A DNA stretch of 64,000 nt from an uncultured Chloroflexia bacterium (GCA_963695715.1 CAVOHP010000014.1:154612-218611), one strand, 5' to 3'; positions 6,364-60,601 are shown, numbered from the stretch's first letter. Numbers and translations are program-made. The notes: generated by a model from the sequence alone, not told the origin.

Positions 6364-8118
6364 TCACGGTATTGTCAGCCCGCGTTCGGGGCGGCTGAAG
6401 GTGTGGCACCAGACACAGTCATAGCGTTTGTCGGTGACGTGTTTGTTGTGCAGATCATTGAACGGCTTCCTTTCCTCCAGGCGGTGGCACTGCGTGCAGA
6501 CGGTCGCCTCATCGCCTTTGAGAACGTAGCCTAGCTCCGGCAAGTTCATCCGCGCCGTATTCTCGTGGCAGTCCGCGCACCTCAAGGCGCTGTCCTTCGG
6601 CCCGACGCCATGGGTGATCAACTGTTCGGCAGTCGTGTTGACCCAGCTATAGCTGCCGTTCAGATTCATGAAGGCTACGCCCCGGGCCGCAGCTTCCTCA
6701 TACTTGCCTGTCATGAAGTTCCACAGCACGTCATACTGCACCATACGTCCACTGGCATCATGGCGCGGCTGGACCGCCTCGTGCAACTTGATCGGATATA
6801 ACTTGCTGCCGTCTTCGTCAATGCTACCGTTGGCCTTGGCCATCGCGTACGTGCCATCCGGCTGCGCGGAGACTGACTGCGCCAGGTCATAAACATAGCT
6901 CGTGCCATTCCAGAAGGTATATCGCGGCACGACGTTGCTCGCCTTGACTTCTTCCCCCACCCACGCGCCCTGTCCGCTGCAACCGGCAGGATTCCAAACG
7001 GGGTGCCTCCAATCGCGCGACAACTCGGTCGGCATGTCTTTCGCGAATGTGGGAACGTGGCATGTCTGGCAAGCAACTCGGTCAGTATGTCTATTCAATT
7101 CGGCATTGCCGTGAGGCTTCGCCCCGTGGCAGTCTGCGCAAGACTTGACCGCTCCCCCTTCGGAGATACGCAAGTCAATCCCTTTGCCGGGGATCTGGTG
7201 ATCGGTGGTTACGTGACATGCCTGGCAGGTGAAGTTCGCGCCTTGCGGCGACATGTGAACATCGGAGGTCAACGATGGATTGATGAGCGCCGTGCTCATG
7301 TCGCCGCGCTTCGCGCCGTCCGAGCCGCCCGCCGTGGCATGGCACCGCAGACAGGTCGCACGTGTCGGGAGATGGACGTTCTGAGCTAGCTGCGCCATAG
7401 TCGTCCCCGCCGGCATCAGGTCGAAGCGGGGCTGCATGGTGTAGTTTCCCTCGGCATTCTTGCGCGGGGTCATGTAGGTTTTCTGGTTGCCCTGCCAATC
7501 GGTGACTGTGAGCGGGATGTCCAGCGGTTGCAACGAGCGCCGATACGTGTCGCTGTGGCATATCAGGCAATCCACATCGTTGACGGTCTGATTGGTCACC
7601 TTACCGGTGCTGGCGTGGCATGAGAGACAGGCGTATTCGGCCGGTTGGGGCGCGGTGCAGTAGGTATTCACCTGTGCCCACTTGCCGTCCCACTTCATGT
7701 GCTCAGAGTGCAGCGCGTCATTCGCTTCCTGGGTGTGGCAGGCGACGCAGGTCTGCGGGCCTTCGTAGTTCGTGATGTTCTGATGTGGTTGGGCCGGATC
7801 CGGTGTCAGGGATGGCGCCGGCGTGGGCATCGAAGTCGGTGTCGGCGACGCTGTCGGAGGCGGTGTCGCTGTGGCCGTCGGAGGCGATGTTGGTGTAGGC
7901 AATGGTGTCGGTGTGCGCGACGGTGTCTGTGAAGGCGTCGCTGTCGAGATTGAGGTTTGAGTGGCTGTCGGGGTCGCCGATGCGAGCGGCGTCCTGGTGG
8001 GGCGTCTCGTCGGCTTGGCCCGCTGGGCCAAAACCGGCGCCGGCTGTACAAACAGCACGATTGCCATCAACAGGATCAATGGGGTGACTGCAACTCGAGC
8101 GCGCATTCTTTCCTCCAT
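6364..8118 (-). CDS. Decahaem c-type cytochrome with signal peptide and Pro/Thr-rich linker (intact, 584 aa)
   Basis: Ten CxxCH motifs (CVACH, CLSCH, CLICH, CLRCH, CQACH, CADCH, CQTCH, CADCH, CTQCH, CVWCH); N-terminal hydrophobic signal; TPTPLPTPTSPPTATATPPPTASPTPTSMPTPAPSLTP linker. Confidence 0.85.
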   Translation of the reverse strand: MEERMRARVAVTPLILLMAIVLFVQPAPVLAQRAKPTRRPTRTPLASATPTATQTSISTATPSQTPSRTPTPLPTPTSPPTATATPPPTASPTPTSMPTPAPSLTPDPAQPHQNITNYEGPQTCVACHTQEANDALHSEHMKWDGKWAQVNTYCTAPQPAEYACLSCHASTGKVTNQTVNDVDCLICHSDTYRRSLQPLDIPLTVTDWQGNQKTYMTPRKNAEGNYTMQPRFDLMPAGTTMAQLAQNVHLPTRATCLRCHATAGGSDGAKRGDMSTALINPSLTSDVHMSPQGANFTCQACHVTTDHQIPGKGIDLRISEGGAVKSCADCHGAKPHGNAELNRHTDRVACQTCHVPTFAKDMPTELSRDWRHPVWNPAGCSGQGAWVGEEVKASNVVPRYTFWNGTSYVYDLAQSVSAQPDGTYAMAKANGSIDEDGSKLYPIKLHEAVQPRHDASGRMVQYDVLWNFMTGKYEEAAARGVAFMNLNGSYSWVNTTAEQLITHGVGPKDSALRCADCHENTARMNLPELGYVLKGDEATVCTQCHRLEERKPFNDLHNKHVTDKRYDCVWCHTFSRPERGLTIP

Positions 8119-18389: not shown

Positions 18390-21300
18390 TTACGGGAGGA
18401 TCACCGGGCAGTCCGGCGCCGTCCCGAGGCCGTTGCTGTCGGTGCAGACGATGCGGCCCTGAGGGGCCGGGTTCACGGGGGTGTTGGCGCTGATGTAGTC
18501 CGCCAGCACGTCATCCATTAGGTTCTGGGTGGTCATTCGAGAGGCGACATTCGGATACCCGTCGCCGCCGTAGGCCACGAAGTCGTTGGTCGTGAGCGTG
18601 TAGCTCGCGCCGGCCGTCATATCAATCGGCGCGCCGGTGCACGACCCATCGGCCGCCTGGCGCACCGCGCTCGACACGCGGCTATTGGGCGCCAATGCGA
18701 TGTCATAGGTGAAGCAGAGGCCTGAGATTTGCGGGAAGCGCCCGTCGCTGGTGGTCGTATTGAAGAACGATACGCCATTTTCCAGGAACGCCTTCAACTC
18801 GGAGCCTGAGATTTCCACCGTCACCGCTACGTTTCCGAACGGCAGCACGGCGAGGACTTGTCCACGCGTGATGGGGTACGGAGGCGGCGTGAAGGCCGGG
18901 CAGTAATCGCCGGCGATGTCCGTCGTCGGGCAGGTCAGATTGGCGCGCAAGCCGCCTGCGTTGGTGAGGGCGAAGTCGGTGAGGTAGGTCGTGCGCATCG
19001 CATCGGTGGTCAGATCGCCGATCAGCGACTCGCAGCGACGCCCGCTGGCGTTGCCGCAGATGTCGGCGCGCGGGATGGCGACGCCAGATTCACCAACCAT
19101 CGTGTTGAAGATCGGCCCAAGCTGGGTATTGAGGTCGTCAATCATCGCCTGGATCTCGGGATCAGATGTCACGCCGATGTTCCAGGGCTTGTGATAATCA
19201 CCCGTCATGTAGATCACGTCCTTGCGGTTCGTGTCAATCGTGAAGCGGGTGCGGTTGAACCGGACGCCGGCGTTGATATTCTCCGTCACCATGACGCCGT
19301 TGGGGCGGAAGGTCACGTACTGAAGATGCGTGTGGCCGCCATAGACGGCATCCACACCGACCAATGCATCGGCGAAGTCGAGCAACTCACTGGTCGCCGG
19401 GTCGGGATCCGTCACCGTGCCGCCAAATGCGCCGATGTGCCCCACCGCCAGCACGACGTCGGCCTTGGTCTTGCCCTTGAACTGAGTCACTGCGGTGTTC
19501 ACGGCAGCAACGGGGTCGGTCACCACGAACGGATCGAGGTAGCCGGGGAAGATGAGCTGAGGCAGCTCGGTCAGGGTGTAACCGACCACGCCAACCTTGT
19601 ACCCGCCCATGTTAAAGACCCGCGAAGGCGACCATTCGGCGGGCGTTTTGTTGGTTGCGGGGTCAATCACATTGGCCGACAGGTAAGGATGATCCGCCAG
19701 CGGGATCAACTCGGTGCGCAGGTACTCCTGCCCATAGTCGAACTCGTGGTTACCCAACGCGTCCGAGGTCACGCCCATCATGTTCTTCGTTTCGATGGTG
19801 GGTTTATCGCCAAAGAAGTTCGAGATGGGCGGCGTCGCGCCGGTCGAGTCGCCGGCGGCTACCGTCAGTGAACCATCTTTCGCCTCGGCCCGGTATACGT
19901 CGAACCACGGCTTGAGGAAGGCCGCGCCGCCGATGGCGAACGACGGATTGGTGACTCCGGTACCGCTGAGGTTATCAGAAGTCTGCGTCAGCGGGACGAG
20001 TTGGCCGTGGAAGTCGTTGATGCTCAATACGGTGAGCTCTTTGTATTGGCCGGGCGCCTTGAACAGCTCGTACATGATCCGGCCGCGAGCATTGACCGGG
20101 CCGGGGAAGTTCAGCATGAACGAGAGCGTCGGCGTCAGATCAATGGCCCGGACGCCCGCCGCAGGGCCGCCCTTCCAGATGCCGGGGCCGGCCGCCACGA
20201 ACGTGGCGTGCATGTTGACATTGTCCGCCAGGTTGACGGTCTCCGGCAGGTAGCCGTGCTGCCCGAAGAACTGCGAGAAGGCGATGGTCTGGCCCAGGGT
20301 CGCCGCATCGAACTGATACGGCGGCTTGAGCACCACGACGACATCGCCGCTGCGGTTGGGATGGAGGGAGTCGCTGCCATCCACGTCACGCAACTCTTCC
20401 TTCATCATGATCTTGAGCACAACGTCCGCGCCGGGGTTGGCCGGGTCGGTCAGGCCCTGGAAGGCGTTGACCACGGCTGTGCGCACCTGCTCATAGGTCG
20501 TCCCGGCGGGCAGCGTCGTGTTGACGTAAATCTGCGCCGTGCCGCCCGCCCAGCAGGCCTTGGCCAGGTTGACAGCGCCGGTTCCGGTCGCCGCGCGGCA
20601 GTTGCTGAAGACTTCGCTGCCGTCGCCGTTCTTCTGGATGCCGGCGTTGGCCAGCACCTTGCCGGCGTTCACCGCCAGCCACTGGGCGCCGAACCCATGA
20701 TCGGAGGCGGCGAAGACGGTGGTTTTGTTGCGGCCCATCATCAGCCGGGCCAGGGCCAGCGTGTCATCGGCTTCGGAGTAGGCGGCGCGGATATACCCGT
20801 CCGCAATTTCGGGCGTGATGACCTGGCCGAAAGAGGTGTAGGTGTTGTAGTAGGGGTTGTTGACCCCGTTCACCGAGGAGGTCGTGAGGCCCAGGAACAT
20901 ATGGGAGAACTCATCGGTGACAGGATTCCCCAACATCAGCAGGTCGGGCTGATAACCCATACCCATGACGGTCCCACCGCTCACCGTGGGCACAGGCCCC
21001 GTGCCCAGGATGTACTTGAGGTAGGTGTGGTGGGCGTCTTTCCACTTCAGGCCCTGCTCGGCATAGGTGTCTGCATCTACCAACCCCGATTCGAACACGG
21101 CATAGTCGGCGGCGGTCGAGCTGGGGAACCACTTGTTCAGGTCTTCTTCGAAGTCGCCGGGATACCCACAGCCGTTGCAGGTTGCAATGGCGCGCGCTCG
21201 CGGAGGTGAAGAAGAGGCTGAACTGGCTCAGGTCGGGCGCGAACAGCATGGCCTTGACGTAGAACCCGGCCGTCTTGCCCGAAGTCAGAGTGACCTTAAC

Positions 21301-22140
21301 ATCTGCCCAGCCGCCCTGCATCAGAGTGGCGATAGCCGCGCTGCCATCCTTACCGGCGGCATGGGGGGCAATCAAGACCTTGTCGTAATTGACGACACCG
21401 TCGTTGGTGGTGTCGTAGACGTAGAAGTCGTACTGGTCGTCAGCAACAGACGACGACGCAATATCGAATGTGCCCTGTTTGGCCGGGCTGTAGCTGGCCG
21501 GAACGTTGCTCCAACCGGCGGCATCGGCCAGGTCGTAACGCTGATATTGGACGCCGAACGCTGCGGCGCCGGCAGGCTGACCGGGCACATCCCAGTTGGT
21601 CCACAACCCGCGATTCGAGTAGAAGCCCCGATAGTCAATCACCGGGCCTTGCAACGGGGTGGATGTGCGGGATCCGCCGGCCCATTCAACCGATACGACC
21701 CGCTTGCCGGCGCGCTCTGCGGCTTCGGCGATGGTGTCTGCCTGCAGAACGTCATTCGAGAACGCCGCCGTGCGGTTGTTGAACAGGTCGCCGGATCGGA
21801 AGAAGGTGTTGTTGGTCGAACCATGTTCGCTGGGGTACGCGCCGGTTGCCAGGGTATACCACCCGACGCCGGTGTTGGGCGGGAAGGCTTGAACGAGACC
21901 ATTATCGCCCTTGACGCCTTTTGCCATCAATTCGGCATAGGTGGGCATGTCGCCTTCTGAAGCATAACGCTCCATGATATCGGGGCGCATCCCATCGGCG
22001 GCGAAGAAGATCGCCTTGTAGGCGAGCGGCTTCGGCGGCTGGGGCACTCCCACGGGCGCGGCGCTTGCGCTCAACGGCGCAAGCAACATCACGGCCAGCA
22101 GGCTGAAAACCAGTAGCCTGTACACGGACTTCCTACTCAT
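18390..22140 (-). CDS. Secreted fusion protein: alkaline-phosphatase-superfamily nucleotide pyrophosphatase/phosphodiesterase (NPP) domain plus 5'-nucleotidase/2',3'-cyclic phosphodiesterase (calcineurin-like plus 5'-NT C-terminal domain); one frameshift near 21200
   Basis: Signal peptide; [10 protein letters not shown] and [15 protein letters not shown] (NPP motifs) lie on opposite sides of the frame break; then [22 protein letters not shown] metallophosphoesterase motifs and a 5'-NT C-terminal domain; about 1,250 aa total. Confidence 0.75.
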
Positions 22141-51330: not shown

Positions 51331-51851
51331 TGTTGGGAGCAGGTAAGCATCTGACCTCGATGTCAGGCATGGCGGCGTCAGTATTGCGTCCTATCTGGAA
51401 TGAAACACAGTATAGTGCATATGCCGTTGCACGGCAAATGTTCTATTTTGCACGCAAGAGAGTCATTCTTGTCGGGTCGGATGAGGGTGATGGCTTATGA
51501 CCACCTGTCGCCAGCAGGAACTGCGGCGTCATCGCTGATGTGCCACTCGCCCAGCGCCACCGGCGCTTCATCGGCGTTAAAAAGCTCGATCCATCATGGA
51601 TCGCGACACAATCAACAACAAGGTATGGTGCTCAGCGCACGGCTTGTATTACCGGGGGGAAAGCGATGAGGTGAGCTGGACGCGAACGCTAGGTTCTACT
51701 GGAACCAAGCGTTGGCGAGACGGAGGGGTGGTCGAGAGTTTGGGCGAATTCCTCTGAAAAACGTTGGTGTAAATCATTGGGACGCCCAACAACCAAGCTC
51801 AGCGGACTGGCCCGCCGTGGCATGAGGTTAGGCACCATCGCTCCACAGCAG

Positions 51852-52478
51852 TCAGAGGGTCGAGCAATATGCGAGGAAGTCGGCGATTGGTGCATCTAGC
51901 TTCGCCCAGGGTCCATCGGAAAGTAGTAAAAATGCTCGTCGTTGAAGATCTGGTTTAGCGACCGAGACCGCCTCATGAGTTCTTGGATTGTGCATGAACC
52001 GTTCTAATACCCATCTGTATAGAAATTGGGGCTTCGGTGAGCTGCCGCGAAGCATGCGCCGAGTCGGCTGCGTCATCGGCACGCACCCAGATGTAGATCG
52101 GCCATCGTGCCACGGAGTAGGAGGAGTTGTACCTTGTACCCAGTAGCCCACCCTTCGCTCGGACATCACGATCTTCGGCGATTGTCTCAGGTGAACTGCT
52201 CCCGATAATGCTGAAGCGCCATCGTGAATCACGCAATGCCGATCAGCGGACGCGGGCGGCAACAAGGCGCGCACATCGTTGAATAGATCCATTCCAGGCC
52301 TTGCTACTGCGGCTGAGTACTTCGTGATGTCGTCAGTGTGATAGCAGGGGACTGGGGGGTTGTAGGGAAACAGAGGCATTTCGGAGTCCTCCCTCAAATG
52401 AACAACGCAACACAGCGACGGCTTTGACGGCAAACGTCCGCGCTTCAGATGCGGGGCGCTCGTTCCTAGCAGTATCAC
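51852..52478 (-). CDS. Hypothetical ORF within the lower-GC island (possibly a gene remnant)
   Basis: Longest ORF in a ~2.3 kb region with no convincing coding signal; no motif recognised. Confidence 0.25.
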   Translation of the reverse strand: MILLGTSAPHLKRGRLPSKPSLCCVVHLREDSEMPLFPYNPPVPCYHTDDITKYSAAVARPGMDLFNDVRALLPPASADRHCVIHDGASALSGAVHLRQSPKIVMSERRVGYWVQGTTPPTPWHDGRSTSGCVPMTQPTRRMLRGSSPKPQFLYRWVLERFMHNPRTHEAVSVAKPDLQRRAFLLLSDGPWAKLDAPIADFLAYCSTL

Positions 52479-53131
52479 AAGATAACGCGTGCGTCGGCTG
52501 CAAGTGTTGGTTAGGCGGCAGCGCGATTCTGGCGCTGCCTATTTGAACAAGACGACCAGACGCCAGAAGGCATCGGGACGTAATGGCGCGTGCGGTCGTA
52601 GTCGCTCCAAGTCGTCGGGTTAGCCCTCTTCAGGCCACGACCGTCAAGTCCCGCATCCTGTGCCAGTCAACCCGTTCGTGTCGGCCAGGCAAGAGACCGC
52701 CACCGCAGCGAGGCAGCGGTCGGGCAACTCGGCCGCGGCACGCCAGTGCGTGCGGTCCGCCGCTCGAGAAGCCCATAGTCCGGAATGTCTTTGCGCCGAA
52801 AGCCTTCACGACGTGCGCTGCATCCGTTGCGCCATTGACGATCTTACTGCACGGGCATTGACGCGACGTGCTGTTACCAGGGCACGACGATGAGCGGGGT
52901 AGGGGCGCCTCCTCCATGTGCCACGCTGGGGATCTGTGGGTGGCCTGGGCTGGCGAGTGGGCGTACCCTTCGCGCAAACGGGTTGCTGAACTACGCGTCA
53001 GGCGCTGAGTCAGGGCATTGCGATAGGCGATTTGGTGGCGCTCCACCGGTCGAAGCGCATAGTCGACCTCTCACCATATCCCGGCGGAATTCGGAACGCC
53101 AAGGATCGTGGGATTCCCTGACGCGCCCGCC

Positions 53132-53518
53132 TCACGTGGTCACTATCCAATCCTCTACGATGCGGCCATCAGCCAGACGATATATAATTTGACCGGATGA
53201 GGTGGTCGATTCGTTGGTTGCCGCGACACCCATGAACTCACCTCGTTGGGTCCCACGGAACGTATAGCGTGCGGCTACTCTATCGCCCTCGAGCGACCAG
53301 GTCTTCAATAGTGAAGTGCATGTCCGGGTAAGCTGCATGGAATGCCCTGACCGCTTGTTTGACGGCCTCGGGGCCGATAACATTGCTGCCATCTGGCCAG
53401 TGCCGGACATAGTCGGGCGAAAAGATCTCATCAGCCGCGGCCAGGTTGCCTTGGTTCCAGAGTTCGTTGAAGTTACGCCTGATGACACTGCGGTTCTGCT
53501 AATTAGCTCGGCTGGCAT
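53132..53518 (-). CDS. SnoaL-like / predicted ester-cyclase-family small protein; two single-nucleotide frameshifts
   Basis: GAGAGGAAG ribosome-binding site plus ATG at 53518; NRSVIRRNFNELWNQGNLAAADEIFSPDYVRHW...FTIEDLVA then GDRVAARYTFRGTQRGEFMGVAATN...GRIVEDWIVTT in the next frame; first shift fits an AAA-to-AA change in agaAAcc. Confidence 0.55.
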   Translation of the reverse strand: MPAELISRTAVSSGVTSTNSGTKATWPRLMRSFRPTMSGTGQMAAMLSAPRPSNKRSGHSMQLTRTCTSLLKTWSLEGDRVAARYTFRGTQRGEFMGVAATNESTTSSGQIIYRLADGRIVEDWIVTT

Positions 53519-53750
53519 GATCGTCTTCCTCTCTCTAGATCAGAATCCGCTCGATACCCAGAACAGCGGGGCAGGTTCTCTCATCCAGGCTGATCGCATC
53601 GTTGGTGCGGTCGTAGAGCTTTGTCGTGCGCGGCGACTCGCCGAAGGTCTAGCGATCTGAGAGCCAACGGCACCCTGTGGCTACGCCTACTCCATTGTAC
53701 TACCATTTTGACCGGGCGGCGCGGGGAATTTCTCATGAGCAGAAAGCCAA

Positions 53751-56700
53751 TCAATCATACGCAGACCGATCTCCTCCGCCCGTCACCGGCAGGAACATCG
53801 GCGGCGGGGCCACGTCACCCTTGAAGCGCGGGATGAGCCGGTAGCCGCCCACGTAAGGCTGCTCTGCGACGTACTGGCCGACCACGCCGCGCGCCACCCA
53901 CCAGTCGCCGAGGTGGACGTAGGGCCGCCGCCAGGGGAGGTCTTCGGGGAAGTAGACGCGGAGCGCGCCGCTGCCGTCATCCAGCAGGAGCGCGTTCGGC
54001 TCGTACCTGACGACGCGCCCAAGCACCAGCGCAAGCTGTCCTTCCTGCGCTTCGCCGAGGCGCCCGGTCGCCACGCGCACCGCCGCCGGTATCTCGCCCT
54101 TGCCCAGCAAGGTGATGTAACCGGGGTCGGGGACAGACAGTTCCAGCTCGCCGTGATAGTCGCGCGTCCAGCCGGTGACGCGCAGCAGGTCGCCCACAAC
54201 CAGCGGCGGATACTCGCCCTTGCGGAGATAGATGCGCGCGCCGCCCGTCGCATCCTGGATGTAGATGCTGCGCCCGAACAGCCCCGGCGGCAGCGTTACG
54301 ACGCCGGTGAGCGTGACGCGCGTATCGGGCGGCAAGGCGCGCACGTTCGCCATCGCGGTCTCGCCCGAAAGACCGCCAGAGCGGGGACGGGGGTCGCCCT
54401 GCCGCCCGGCGGCGATCGTCGTCATCGGCGTCGTCATCCCGCGGCGGTCGCAATCGGTTCGCCTGCCCCGGCGTGACCACGCAGTCGGAGGTCCAATCGC
54501 CTGAGCCGTCGGCGGCGCGGCAGAAGCTACGGTCGTCGCCGGGGCCATGCGCGTATTCGAACCGGTCAAGCTCGACGCCATCGGGCCGGGAAAGCGTCAC
54601 GCTGTCGCGTGAATCGCCCAGCGACAGGCCCGTTTGCGCGCGGAACAGCAACAGGTAGGCGCGCGGCCAGATCACTGTGCCGGCGGGGAGCGTGTAGGCG
54701 CCGGCGTCATCGCCGATGCGCCATCCACCCAGCGTCGCCGGCGTTTCACCGGCGTTGAATAACTCGATCCACTCGTCGCGGAAGTCGGCCGCGCCATCCC
54801 CATCCCAATCCACCTCGCGCGGGTCAGGCAAAATCTCGTTCAGCGTGACGCCTTCGGGATAGGCGGTCGCCGTCGGCGTTGCTGTCGGCGTCGGCGTTGC
54901 GGTCGCCGTTGCAATCGCCGTGGGAGAAGCGGTGGCCGTCGGCGTCGGTCGAATCGAATTCGCGGTTCCGGGCGAGCCGAAATCGCCCGCGCCGCCGGGC
55001 CACGGCGACCAGGACATGCCCCAGCTCGCGCCCAGGCTGTTATCGAGCGCCACATCCAGCAAGACCATAGACGCCCCGGTCGGATCGGGAAACTCCGGCC
55101 CGCCATCGTAGGCCACGCGATCTATCTCGCTTCCTGCCCCATCCAACAGGATGATCTCGTCCACATCATTCCCCAGCAGGAAGCCGGAATATTCGTAGGC
55201 CATCGCCACGCCGCCGTTCACCGCGCGCATCGGCATTCCGACCCAGGACCAGATAATCGCCAGGCGCAATGAATAGCGGGCCGCCCGCCGCAATGCGATG
55301 CGTATCGGTTCCTTCGTCACGCAGGGTCCAACCGTTCAGATCAATCATATGGTCGCCCGCGTTGTATAGCTCGAACCACTCGCCGACAACGTCCGGCACG
55401 ACCGCGGGGTTCTGCATGATCTCGGTGATGATCACGTCGCCGGGTTGACCCAGGCCAGGCGTCTCTGTCGCCGTGGATGTGGCGGTGGGCGTAGAAATCC
55501 GGGTAGAGGTAGGCGTCGGCGTCAACGTGGGCGTAGCCGTTGCCGTCGGGGTGAATGACGATGTCGCCGTAACTGTGAAGGTGGCGTGGGGGTTGCCGTC
55601 GGCGTCCCGGACGGCGTAGGTGTGGGGACCGGGGGATTCGCGGCGCCGGGCGAGCCGAAGTCGCCCGCGCCGCCGGGCCACGGCGACCAGGATAAGCCCC
55701 AACTCGCGCCCAGGCTGTTATCAAGCGTCACATCCAGCAAGGTCATGGACGCCCCACTCGGATCCGGGAACGCATCCCCGCCATCATAGGCGATCCGATC
55801 AATCTCGGTGCCCATCCCATCCAGCAGGATGATCTCGTCGGCAGCGTTCGCCAGCAGGAACCCGCTGTAGGCGTAAGCCACCGCCACGCCGCCGTTCAGG
55901 GACGCATCGGCCTCGCGGCCCAGCACCAGATAATCGCCAGGCGCGATGAGCAGCGGGCCGGCGGCCTGGATGTGGTGATGGTCAACGCCATCATCGCGGA
56001 TCGTCCAGCCGTTGAGGTCAATGGGGCGAGCGCTCGCGTTATACAACTCGAACCACTCGCCCACCGTGTCCGAAACGGCGTCGGGGTTCTGCATGATCTC
56101 GGTGATGATCACGTCGCCGGGTTGGGCCGGTTCGGATGTCCATGTCGCGACGGGCGTACTTGTACTCGTGGCAGTTGATGCAGGTGTGGGGGTGACCGTC
56201 GCGGTCGGCGTCAGGGTATGCGTGGGCGTCGGCGTCAAGTGCGAGTCGGCGTGGGCGTCGCGGTCGGTGTCAGGGTATGCGTGGAGGTGGCGTCGCGGTC
56301 GGTGTGGGCGACGGCGTCATGGTGGGAGGCGGCGCGATGTTCGGGGAAGCCGGGCGACGGCGAAAAGCCCTCCATCCATTCCCCAAACCCATCTACCGCG
56401 CGGCTGTAACTCCGATCCGCGGTCGGGTTGGTGTAGGAAAAGGCGTCCACTTCGAGACCATCGGGCGCGAGCAGGCGCGCGGTGTCGGCGTCCTGGTTCA
56501 GCGCCACGCCCGTGCCCGAACGGTGACGCACCAGAAAGCCCATCGGCTCCAACACAGTCCCTGGCGGAAAGATGTAAGGCGATGTGCCGCCAAAGGCCAT
56601 GTCGTCCAGCGCCCAGCCGCCCAGGTCTATCGGATACGGTTCGAGGTTGTAGACTTCGATCCACTCATCGTAGGCATTCGCGACGCCGTTCCCGTCCCAA

Positions 56701-58215
56701 TCCACACTCATCGGTCGAGGCAATACTTCGTTCAGACGCACTCTCGGCCAGGGGGTGGCGGTCGCGGTCGGCGCCGGCGTGGTCGTGCAGGTTGGCGTCA
56801 GCATCGCGGTTGGCGTCAGCGTCGCAGTTGAAGTTGGGGTGGGCGTGTGAGCAGTCGTCGGCGTTGCGTCCGGCGGCGATGTTGCGACCTCCGTCGCCGT
56901 CAACGTGACGGTCATGGTCGGTGTGCGCGTGGGCGCTTCCGTGGACGTAGGCGTCGCCGTGGGCGCGGGCAGCGGGAGACCGGGGTGCGGCGTTGCCTGC
57001 GGCAGCCAGTCGGCGCGCGTGTTCGTATCCTCATCGGGAGGAACACGCGCCAGCGACCAGCCGGGATCGACATCCGGGCAAGGCGGGTCGAAGATGCCCG
57101 TATCCGAGCCATAACTCATGGCATCTATGAGTGTTCCATCCGGCGCCAGGAGCAACACCCGATCTCCGGCGTTGATCAGCCCGTCGCCGATGATCCCTTC
57201 CAGCGACACCAGCGGGCCGGCATAGCCGGGATGGTTGGCGAAGAACCCGGAAGCCGTGGCGGCGATCACCAGGAATTGACCCGACGGCAACACGATCGCC
57301 GGGATGGCGTCCGCCTCGGCGTTGTCGGCCACGCGCCAGCCCGCCAGATCAACGTCCGAGCCGCTCGCGTTGTAGAGTTCGATCCACTCGAACGGTTGGT
57401 CGCTGCCGGCCTGTGGTGCGTCGTACATGACCTCGCTCAGGAGCAGCCTGGGCCAGACAACAGGGGTGCGCGTCGCCGTTGAAGTCGCTGTTGCGGTTGG
57501 GGGCGCCGGAACGGGCGTCTCGGTGGGCGTCGGAGAGGGCGTCATCTCCGGCGTATCCGTGGGCGTTGTGGAGGGCACAGGGACTGGGTGTGACCGTGTA
57601 GGTCGGCGTCACGGAGGCAGTTGCCGTGGGCGCGGGGGCGGCGGGAATTGCGCCGGGGGAAGGCGCAGGTTGCGCGCGCCAGTCGGCGGCGGCATCCGTA
57701 TCCTGCGCAACCGAAACACGCTCCAACGACGACCCGGCGGGCACGTCGGGGCAGGGCGGACTGAAGGCCGAGACGTCGGAGCCGTAGCTCAGCGCGTCCA
57801 CGGCGTTCCCGGCAGGGTCCAGCAAGATGAGGCGGTCGGCCGCGTTGTTCAGACCATCGCCGATCGAACCCTCCAGCGTCACCAGCGGGCCAGAGAAACC
57901 GGGGTAATTGGCGAAGAAGCCGGAAGCTGTTGCGGCGACCACCAGCGTCTCGCCAGGGGCCAGCACGTAGGCGGGTACGAAGTCGCTCTCTGCGTTGTCG
58001 CCCACGCGCCACCCGGCAAGATTCACCGGCGCGCCGGTCGGGTTGTGGAGTTCCAGAAATTCATATTGCGTATCTGTGCCCGACTGCGGCGCGTCGTAAA
58101 GCACTTCGCTGATCAGGAGATGATCGGGCGATTCGGCGGCGCTGCGCCGGGAGAAAGGCGGTAGAAGGAACGAGGCGAAAAGAAGGACGACGGAAAAGAT
58201 ATGCAGGCGCGCCAT
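53751..58215 (-). CDS. Giant secreted multidomain protein: signal peptide, at least six lamin-tail domains (LTD) separated by Pro/Thr-rich linkers, C-terminal OB-fold-like domain; several frameshifts within internally repetitive DNA
   Basis: LTD signatures recur: LISEVLYDAPQSGTDTQYEFLELHNPTGAPVNLAGWRVGD, LSEVMYDAPQAGSDQPFEWIELYNASGSDVDLAGWRVAD, RLNEVLPRP...DEWIEVYNLEPYPIDLGGWALDD, VIITEIMQNP...GEWFELYNA...IDLNGWT(I/L)RD (twice), TLNEILPDP...DEWIELFNAGETPATLGGWRIGDD; C-terminal TLTGVVTLPPGLFGRSIYIQDATGGARIYL...; pieces lie in 6 ORFs in successive frames. Confidence 0.65.
54850..58100. repeat. Internal near-identical repeats (~700-bp period) inside the LTD gene
   Basis: For example 54940-55040 versus 55640-55740 (~90% identical) and 57000-57400 versus 57700-58100. 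Confidence 0.7.
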
Positions 58216-58371
58216 GGCCTACCATCCATTCAGAGAACCGTGAAGCTACAATGAGCGAACGGGATAGACTCGCGCGTTATATCACGAAGGCGAATGACTT
58301 GTCAAATGGGGCGACAAAAAACCGGGCGCTTTACAGCGCCCGGTCCAGATGTTCGGTTGCTTATTCCAGGT

Positions 58372-60601
58372 TTACTCGGCGCGGGTCAGGCCGGTCATGT
58401 CAACCTCGATGCCGCCCTCGCCCAGGTCTTCCAGCGCATCGTACAGGACCTGCGCTGCGTACACAGGGTTGTGTGCGAAGACGCCGGGGTCCTTCTGGAT
58501 GTACTGGTAGTTGTAGGCCGCGCGCAGCAGGCGAGGCGTCCAGGCCGCGAAGGCCCCTTCACCCTCATCAATCTTGCCGTTGGCGTTCGCATCTTCGAAG
58601 AAGTACGGATACGTCACTGCATCGTAGAGGATGGGTTTCTTGGCGACGTCTTTGGCATAGAGCTGCATCGCTGCGAACAGCTTCTCTTGCAGCGCCGTGA
58701 TCTCCGCAGACACGCCTTCCTTGGCGTCCTTGTCGCCGTCGAGGTCAGCCGCGCTGATGCGGATGTCCTGAGGCGTCTTGACGCCCGCATGGCAGGTCAC
58801 GCACTTGTCGAAGGCGAGTTCCTGCGTATGCGTGCCGTGGCAATCGGTGCAGGTCTGGAAACCGGGGGCGTGCATGTTACGACCGGCGTATTCCTTGTCG
58901 GCGTACTGATACGCGCCCTGAGCCTCGTCGCCGAACAGCGACGCGCCCGCCGCGAAGTAGTGTACGTTCGAGAAGCGCAGCGGCGTCTCGGGCACGACGT
59001 CATCTTCCTTGCCCTTGAGCTTGGCGTTCATCGAGGCCGTGGATTCGCGACCCTGATGGCATTCGAGACAGACGTTGGCGTCTGCCGGCAGGAGGTCGCC
59101 TTCTGCATTCTTCTCGGTGCTGAACGTGACGCTCTTCCCGCTGGGGAAGGGCACATTCGTCACCGGATGCAGGGTGAATTTAGCCAGATCGTTGTGGCAG
59201 GTGGTGCAGGCGAACCCGTTCGCCGGGTGCGCCGCCGTGACGCCGGTGGTGACGACGTTGCCGCGTCCGTCAACCGCGACTGTGCCGCCGTTCGCGAGGA
59301 ACTCAGGCAGGCCCTCGGAGGAGTGGCACTTGGCGCACGAAGCCGGAACCATGCCCTCTTCGTCCCAGTGACGGAAGGCTTCAGACGTGCCGTCGAAATG
59401 ACCGGCGTCGTCCCGAACCGCAGCCTCGAGGTCAATCGGCTTCGGCGAGCTTGGTGTTCAGGTCCGCGATCGAATCGTGCATCAACTGGACAACGTACTT
59501 GGCGTTGTGCGCGAACTTGCCGGGGTCCTTGCTGGCAACCTGGTAGTTGTAAGCCGCCTGCAACAGGCGCGCCGTCCAACTTGAGTAGCCCTTCTCATCC
59601 TCATCGGCCTTGCCGTTGTTGTTGGCGTCGGCAAACCAGTACGGATACGCCGCCGGGTTGTAGGCAATAGGCGCTTCCGAGACCTCTGCGGCGTAGGCCG
59701 TAATGGCCTCGCCCAGTTTTCCTTGCAGACCGGTCACTTCAGCCGAAACGCCTTCCTTCGCATCGCCGTCGCCGTCATAATCCATCAACGAGCCGGGCAT
59801 GCGAATCTTGGCGAGGTCTTCGACCTTGGCGACGCCCGCATGGCACGTGGCGCACTCTTTCACATCGAGCGCCAGCGTGTGCGAGTTGTGGCAGCCGACG
59901 CAGGTGTCATACGGCGCAGGATGCTGGAACTTGCCGTCATACGACATGTCGTCGTATTCGTAGCCGCCCTTGGCCTGGGTACCGTATTGCGTGGCTGCAG
60001 CAGCGAAGTAGTGAACGTTGCGGAAACCAAACGGCACTTCTTTGCCATCTACCGTCATGGGTTTGACGACAGCATCAAGATCGGTGACTTTGAAGTCCGC
60101 GATCTGCTTGTCCACGCTCACTTTGGATTCGCGCCCCTGATGGCATTCCATACAGCGGGCTTCGCTTCCGAGGCCGGTCATTTCGATGCCAGACGGGAAG
60201 ACAACGCCATCCTTGGTCGGGGTCACGGTGTTGTGGCAAGCCACGCACTGGATGCCGTTTGACGGGGGATGCTTTGCGTCAATCTTTCCGGCGGCGCTGC
60301 CATCAGCGCCCAGAAAGTCAAGATAGCCGGTGGTGGCGTGGCATTTGGCGCAGGCGGCAGGGACTTCCTTCGGATCTTCGGCGTCCCAATGGCGGAACGC
60401 CTCTGCCATCGCGTCTGCATGGCCGGAGCCTTGCCAATCCTTGAGGAAGGGGATCTCCGGTATAACGGGCTCGTCAGCCGCAGCGGCTGCTGCGGGCGCA
60501 GGGGTGGGCGTGGCATCCTGTGCGTAGGCCACAGCGCCGAAGGCTGTGAGCAACAGGACAACAATCAGGGCCAGCCCAAGGGACTTTCTCATGGCCTTCA
60601 T
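58372..60601 (-). CDS. c-type cytochrome made of two tandem pentahaem modules (decahaem if fused); the second module lacks its own signal peptide and the split coincides with a frame change at 59432-59440
   Basis: AAGGAGG ribosome-binding site, signal peptide MKAMRKSLGLALIVVLLLTAFGAVAYA; module 1 CAKCH, CVACH, CMECH, CVGCH, CATCH; module 2 CAKCH, CTTCH, CLECH, CTDCH, CVTCH; modules are paralogous (AEAFRHWDAEDPKEVPAACAKCH versus SEAFRHWDEEGMVPASCAKCH; both end KDPG.FAHN); the module-2 frame is open upstream to within 3 nt of the module-1 stop. Confidence 0.7.

Follow-up and report, generated by a model that had tools for sequence, protein, structure and literature searches.

A secreted multi-lamin-tail-domain protein with a double OB-fold end, encoded 3' of a decahaem cytochrome gene in an uncultured Chloroflexia bacterium

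Positions 53751 to 60601 of a 64,000 nucleotide stretch of DNA from an uncultured Chloroflexia bacterium (GCA_963695715.1, CAVOHP010000014.1:154612-218611; this stretch at its full length is called the window here) carry two co-oriented genes on the minus strand, one for a decahaem c-type cytochrome and, 3' of it, one for a protein containing many lamin-tail domains (LTDs). The LTD gene is a single gene for a secreted, non-enzymatic, modular protein belonging to a family of the Chloroflexota, mainly of the Anaerolineae. The explanation of the region as a whole that is preferred here, and that we consider moderately probable, is of one secreted modular LTD/OB gene that has been broken up by sequence errors and is independent of the cytochrome, with a product that would bind DNA or another polyanion at the cell surface.

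The gene runs on the minus strand from an ATG at 58215 to a stop codon at 53751, a distance of 4465 bp, in agreement with the coding region of about 4.5 kb with a signal peptide that had been proposed in a first-pass annotation made from the sequence alone. Its intact counterpart is found at locus L002, in the metagenome-assembled genome (MAG) Anaerolineae Co_metawrap_1702, which is the closest relative found (86% in the genome scan). The gene order of ABC ATPase, peptide deformylase, cytochrome, and LTD gene is common to the window and L002, and in L002 the last two are intact, encoding a 755-aa decahaem cytochrome and a 1694-aa protein with seven LTDs and an OB end. In the window, the LTD gene is made up as follows:

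53751..58215, minus strand: multi-LTD/OB gene of about 1487 codons, in six open reading frame (ORF) pieces joined by 6-7 one-base frame shifts
58135..58215, minus strand: Sec-type signal peptide, MARLHIFSVVLLFASFLLPPFSRRSAA, by direct reading; kept in L002
57652..58125, minus strand: LTD 1, subtype a (PF00932, E = 3.7e-19; domain map)
56979..57452, minus strand: LTD 2, subtype a (PF00932 in two stretches of one ORF piece, E = 2.6e-33; domain map)
56340..56747, minus strand: LTD 3, subtype b (Pfam match and domain map)
56197..56318, minus strand: Thr/Pro linker with a 59-bp tandem duplication and 2-3 frame shifts (Tandem Repeats Finder, frame display, and alignment with L002)
55636..56124, minus strand: LTD 4, subtype c, first copy of a 678-bp repeat (PF00932, E = 5.8e-20)
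54958..55447, minus strand: LTD 5, subtype c, second copy of the repeat, interrupted by an inserted base at about 55222
54457..54855, minus strand: LTD 6, subtype b, within the invariant C-terminal LTD(b)-OB module (PF00932, E = 9.4e-17)
53775..54353, minus strand: double OB-fold module
53778..53792, minus strand: LPVTG motif, at 9 residues from the stop codon and not followed by a hydrophobic segment

By direct reading, the N-terminus of the protein, MARLHIFSVVLLFASFLLPPFSRRSAAE, is a Sec signal peptide, and it is kept in L002. There are six matches to PF00932 (LTD), with E values from 4e-15 to 3e-33, one of them spanning two ORF pieces; the individual pieces score 56.6-115 bits against a cut-off of 34.3, and the intact L002 orthologue scores 417.8 bits over its seven domains. 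With the window's own subtypes as queries, the order in the domain map is a-a-b-c-c-b-OB. The linkers between the LTDs are rich in Thr and Pro, being of the TPTPTAT type, and for the C-terminal piece there is a match to PF01336 (OB-fold) with a score of 32 bits, the cut-off being 27. No catalytic domain was found with Pfam or NCBIfam in the window pieces or in the intact L002 protein, and the EEP catalytic domain of the ExeM/NucH nucleases is absent from the LTD protein in the same searches.

The first-pass annotation had described at least six LTDs on linkers of this type, an OB-fold-like C-terminus, and no obvious catalytic domain, all of which is borne out, as is its remark that the C-terminus recalls the N-terminal, non-catalytic part of extracellular nucleases with no nuclease domain following. 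The internal DNA repeat that it had noted is also present, corresponding to the LTD c-c pair, with two copies at a spacing of 677/678 bp and 75-84% identity, rather than the period of 700 bp at about 90% identity that had been given. The 59-bp tandem duplication in the linker at 56197..56318 falls one base short of the 60 bp that would keep the frame.

Related loci were collected by a scan of species-representative genomes for the OB module, which gave 23 loci, and by a protein look-up, which gave one more. All 23 of the scan loci are in Anaerolineae or Chloroflexota MAGs. The genes at all 24 loci encode between 1 and 9 LTDs (subtypes a, b, and c) and always end with LTD(b) followed by the OB module. 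When a family profile was searched against 1.84 billion cluster representatives, 2532 of these were recovered at E <= 1e-30. Sampled members with other layouts have extra OB modules or Ig-like domains, and no catalytic domains were seen in them. There was no conserved nuclease, sortase, or cytochrome near the LTD-OB genes among the loci compared. At 8-10 loci there is lineage-level synteny of a methyltransferase, RpoD, LTD-OB, and GAF-domain signalling genes (SpoIIE phosphatase/histidine kinase). Within one subclade (L001, L004, L005, L011, L012, L016, L018, L022, L024) the LTD-OB gene lies directly downstream of a primary sigma factor gene (RpoD-like) and a methyltransferase, and the GAF-domain signalling genes flank it on its other side.

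No paper was found in the literature on a Chloroflexota multi-LTD/double-OB family. The subfamily defined here, with its three LTD subtypes and an invariant LTD(b)-double OB-LPVTG end, is itself uncharacterised. Tandem-LTD and LTD plus OB-type secreted bacterial proteins have been catalogued (Mans et al. 2004, via PMC6085458). As far as that catalogue is described there, its multi-LTD proteins are like the protein of the window in having tandem LTDs, in being secreted, in carrying an OB-type binding domain, and in having no known function, and differ from it in that the window subfamily has three LTD subtypes and the invariant end.

The structural prediction of the C-terminus that had been called for in the first-pass annotation was carried out with AlphaFold2 on a 41-sequence alignment of the OB module. 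It gave a confident model of two beta-barrels (mean pLDDT 92.3, pTM 0.86), which, with the Pfam match, place the module in the OB-fold superfamily. The best neighbours found by Foldseek in the PDB include Teb1-AB, HIN-200 domains, RPA70-AB, and tRNA-synthetase anticodon-binding domains, at E values of about 1e-4. Like the window module, RPA70 DBD-A/B, HIN-200, and Teb1-AB have two consecutive OB barrels; unlike it, they have another barrel orientation (TM 0.3-0.4) and no significant sequence similarity to it, and the window protein is extracellular. With a pI of 6-9.8 the OB module is neutral to basic, in contrast to the Ig-like LTDs, for which a pI of about 4.1 makes them strongly acidic. The module alignment has several invariant Arg, Trp, and Tyr columns, and one OB homologue is labelled 'endonuclease YhcR' by JGI.

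The closest characterised architecture is that of ExeM from Shewanella, which combines a signal peptide and an LTD with a YhcR-like region (two putative OB folds) and an EEP nuclease domain (PMC6085458). The OB region of ExeM is essential for its nuclease activity and the LTD is partly dispensable (PMC6085458). The window protein corresponds to the substrate-binding half of such a nuclease, in multiplied form and with the nuclease missing. The window protein resembles ExeM/NucH in being secreted, in having LTD followed by two OB folds, a likeness by domain order, and in ending with a sorting-type envelope signal. It differs in having neither EEP nor any other nuclease domain, in having six or seven LTDs on Thr/Pro linkers rather than one, and in its LPVTG end, where ExeM has a C-terminal hydrophobic region. 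The NCBIfam ExeM model gives 23.7 bits on the window protein against a cut-off of 1300, with the match lying inside an LTD only. Our best guess, by analogy, is that the protein may be related to ExeM-type nucleases through their LTD and YhcR-like OB part, lack the nuclease, and bind extracellular DNA as a surface or matrix protein.

The protein would, in this case, be exported through the Sec system, and its LTD modules and stiff Thr/Pro linkers would make up a long, outstretched stalk on the cell surface or within the extracellular matrix. The double OB module would bind a polyanion, most likely extracellular DNA, as the YhcR-like OB region of ExeM-type nucleases may also do. As there is no nuclease domain, the protein would not cut its ligand; it would tether or capture it, or join cells to a matrix that contains DNA.

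Several observations weigh against DNA as the ligand. OB folds bind oligosaccharides and proteins too. For the double module as a whole the TM-scores are low, at 0.3-0.4, and it is the fold class alone that is established; in the sequence search of solved structures, the sole hits, to RPA OB folds, did not reach significance (E = 0.015). The main rival to the DNA model is that the protein binds glycans or the cell wall and has a structural role at the surface, in a sheath, or in adhesion, with carbohydrate or wall polymers as the ligands of its OB module and LTDs. This we consider rather unlikely, given that nucleic-acid binders make up nearly all of the best structural neighbours, that the OB module is more basic than the remainder of the protein, and that ExeM acts on DNA.

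At the C-terminus, a hydrophobic-LPVTG motif is nearly invariant across the family, and in the window protein the tail after LPVTG is GGDRSAYD. Sortase substrates need a hydrophobic stretch and a positively charged tail after LPXTG (PMC4617865). The window protein has the LPXTG near its C-terminus and does not have such a tail, which counts against canonical wall attachment, as does the lack of any credible sortase TLxTC motif when the window and the loci were searched for one. Indeed, at 18 of 18 close loci only 2-21 hydrophilic residues follow LPVTG, with no transmembrane segment. A membrane anchor hidden by a further frame shift past LPVTG was considered, and none was convincing; the relatives end there too. 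Among distant members that have a C-terminal LPXTG, about 5 of 36 have the motif followed by a hydrophobic stretch and basic tail, and since some members thus keep the full signal, the LPVTG end is probably what is left of a sortase-type wall-attachment signal, or a non-canonical version of one.

Gram-positive LPXTG proteins share with the window protein the N-terminal signal peptide, repetitive stalk, and C-terminal LPXTG, and some distant members of the family have their full signal, whereas in the window protein and the 18 relatives closest to it the chain stops 2-21 residues past LPVTG. A bolder reading, which seems to us decidedly unlikely, is that LTD(b)-double OB-LPVTG may characterise a stalk protein of filamentous Anaerolineae that has no nuclease and binds extracellular DNA, in which the anchorless LPVTG could mark a non-canonical route of attachment or processing in the unusual envelope of this phylum.

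The reading of the LTD gene as one gene has to account for its fragmentation. The first-pass annotation had spread the gene over six frames, where there are in fact six ORF pieces in three frames of one strand. The frame switches between the three minus-strand frames are at about 57590, 56345, 56285, 56240, 55585, 55222, and 54440. The stitched reading path contains no in-frame stop codon, and its pieces are colinear with the intact 1694-aa L002 orthologue at 66-86% identity (tblastn). At the junctions that aligned cleanly, the gene differs by single bases from L002 or from the paralogous copy of the repeat. In the case of LTD 5, there is one extra base relative both to L002 and to the gene's own repeat copy, and the spacing changes there from 678 to 677 bp.

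Frame shifts are not confined to this gene. In a comparison of five window genes with intact L002 ORFs, 6 frame shifts were found in about 10 kb, in the Band-7, 314-aa, GH2-family (twice), 210-aa, and cytochrome genes, at about 38040, 38737, 39566, 40954, 49970, and 59441 relative to the intact orthologues. A phosphodiesterase/metallophosphatase/5'-nucleotidase gene is likewise split, near 21000, and just the C-terminal half of the domain is in frame in a SnoaL-like gene at 53132-53518. The consensus quality of the window is thus low, with about one indel per 1-2 kb of coding sequence. On the long-read-style contigs of L001, L018, and L024 the LTD gene is fragmented as it is in the window, and the loci of short-read-style MAGs (with NODE_ or k141_ contig names) have single LTD-OB ORFs of 875-1903 aa. 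As one-base indels run throughout the window sequence, the apparent breakage of both the LTD gene and the cytochrome gene can be ascribed to them, and the fragmentation of the LTD gene is most likely an artefact of one-base sequence errors rather than biology.

The alternative is that the gene is a real pseudogene, with the frame shifts being true mutations in a copy that is decaying in the organism. There are 6-7 frame shifts within 4.5 kb and one LTD(b) unit fewer than in L002, and the density of shifts, about 1.6 per kb in the LTD gene and about 0.6 per kb elsewhere (approximately 2.5 times), tells against sequence error as the whole explanation. Real decay of this copy therefore keeps some weight. 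The excess is plausibly explained by the GC-rich, low-complexity linkers. Against decay are the shifts in unrelated genes (cytochrome, Band-7, GH2-family, SnoaL-like, and phosphodiesterase), the stitched path that has no in-frame stop and pieces that each retain their identity to the orthologue, and the other long-read-style contigs that are fragmented likewise; we regard a pseudogene as improbable.

The cytochrome gene and the sequences between the two genes are laid out as follows:

58372..60601, minus strand: decahaem c-type cytochrome, two pentahaem modules; start at 60601 from alignment with the intact L002 orthologue
58316..58346, minus strand: intrinsic-terminator-like hairpin, CCGGGCGCT-GTAA-AGCGCCCGG, followed by T6, 29 nt past the cytochrome stop codon, by direct reading
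58276..58305, minus strand: promoter-like site, -35 TTGACA, 18-nt spacer, extended -10 TGATATAAC, lying some 60 nt before the LTD ATG

The first-pass annotation had presented this as a split cytochrome of two pentahaem modules. The two modules are indeed present, with 5+5 CXXCH motifs, one set in each ORF piece, and the modules are about 45% identical to each other. The Pfam cytochrome c7/c3 families match the pieces. PF22113 (MtrC domain II/IV) reaches 27.2 bits with a cut-off of 30, and the NCBIfam decahaem models are far below their cut-offs. The split itself does not stand as a feature of the gene: in a tblastn search with the intact 755-aa L002 cytochrome the frame changes once, at 59441-59442, where an extra A is present in the window at about 59441 (GAAG in place of the GAG of L002). 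There are more than 3900 homologues of the cytochrome and, among the matches listed, nearly all are single proteins of about 730-770 aa. The cytochrome is most likely one gene broken by a one-base insertion, its apparent split being due to sequence quality. At three of four neighbourhoods of cytochrome homologues examined (L026, L027, L028) enolase follows the homologue.

A second decahaem cytochrome is encoded in the window at 6364..8118 on the minus strand and is intact (584 aa, 10 CXXCH, Pfam Cytochrome_cB and c7). Its Thr/Pro-rich N-terminal region is similar to the linkers of the LTD protein.

The LTD gene is co-oriented with the cytochrome gene and begins 156 bp beyond its stop codon (58371..58216), as had been stated in the first-pass annotation. 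Within this interval, the terminator-like hairpin has a folding energy of -26.1 kcal/mol (z = -3.0 against shuffles, RNA fold), and its stem and T-tract are identical in L002. The TTGACA of the promoter-like site begins ten nt past the terminator-like element by direct reading; its -35 and -10 are kept in L002, and the spacer between them has diverged. A 106-bp insertion in L002 (5327..5432) lies between the conserved terminator-like and promoter-like elements. This insertion contains an inverted repeat, GAGACCTGCGGCC ... GGCCGCAGGTCTC, and may be a small mobile or hairpin element. Conservation suggests that both the terminator-like and the promoter-like signals are functional, which would mean that the LTD gene most likely has its own predicted promoter behind a predicted terminator of the cytochrome gene.

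A point on the other side is that an automatic consensus promoter/terminator scan listed neither of the two intergenic sites. The hairpin was probably missed because a G-U extension of the stem consumes part of the T-run; the promoter-like site is not listed because its -10 hexamer ends in C, which is excluded by the rule of the scan. An Rfam scan of 51-61 kb gave no match.

It had been proposed that the LTD array scaffolds multihaem cytochromes in an electron conduit at the cell surface, co-expressed with the decahaem cytochrome upstream. In favour of this are the shared strand and the distance of 156 bp, the adjacency of the two genes in L002, and the second decahaem cytochrome at 6364..8118. 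An operon would be expected to have no stop or start signals between its genes and to keep its linkage across genomes. Here the conserved hairpin with T6 and the TTGACA-18-TGATATAAC site lie between them, and the survey of synteny found the pairing at 1 of the 24 LTD-OB loci and at none of four cytochrome loci. At 23 of the 24 LTD-OB loci there is no ORF with at least 3 CXXCH motifs within 10 kb, the sole exception being L002; no LTD gene is present in any of the four neighbourhoods of cytochrome homologues; and on contig CAYYTK010000001.1, which carries both genes, they are about 340 kb apart. The LTD protein itself has no haem-binding or redox motifs.

Intervening signals and a lack of conserved linkage are the two findings that the first-pass annotation had itself named as telling against a functional unit with the cytochrome, and both of them were obtained. 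The adjacency of cytochrome and LTD gene is, from these sequence comparisons, lineage-specific, and a functional link is not supported; we consider the electron conduit to be very improbable. That the region holds several independent small LTD genes is hardly credible, for while there are six separate pieces in the ORF list and the public annotation has just a 200-aa OB protein (P0001) here, a signal peptide is found on the first piece only, the ends of the pieces fall inside domains or linkers (LTD 5 being cut mid-domain), and the orthologues are single ORFs.

On the other side of the LTD gene, about 2.4 kb (51331..53750) separate its stop codon from the Band-7 gene. This stretch is not present in L002, where the genes are 140 bp apart, and its sole contents are the SnoaL-like fragment with its frame shift (53132-53518) and ORFs that match nothing in Pfam. 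The split phosphodiesterase gene, at 18390..22140 on the minus strand, combines Type I phosphodiesterase, calcineurin-like phosphoesterase, and 5'-nucleotidase C-terminal domains. It resembles extracellular nucleotide-degrading enzymes of the UshA/YhcR type, is 32 kb from the LTD gene, and could bear on the catabolism of extracellular DNA.

What appeared to be a split cytochrome followed by a giant gene in six frames is thus two ordinary genes seen through indel-rich sequence. Anaerolineae MAGs have in common a large family of multi-LTD proteins that are secreted and end in a conserved double OB, and the domain map and conserved C-terminal module make up a defined construct for the biochemistry of bacterial LTDs. 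In the organisms that carry it, this family may serve in the binding of extracellular DNA, in the cohesion of biofilms or filaments, or in attachment to surfaces.

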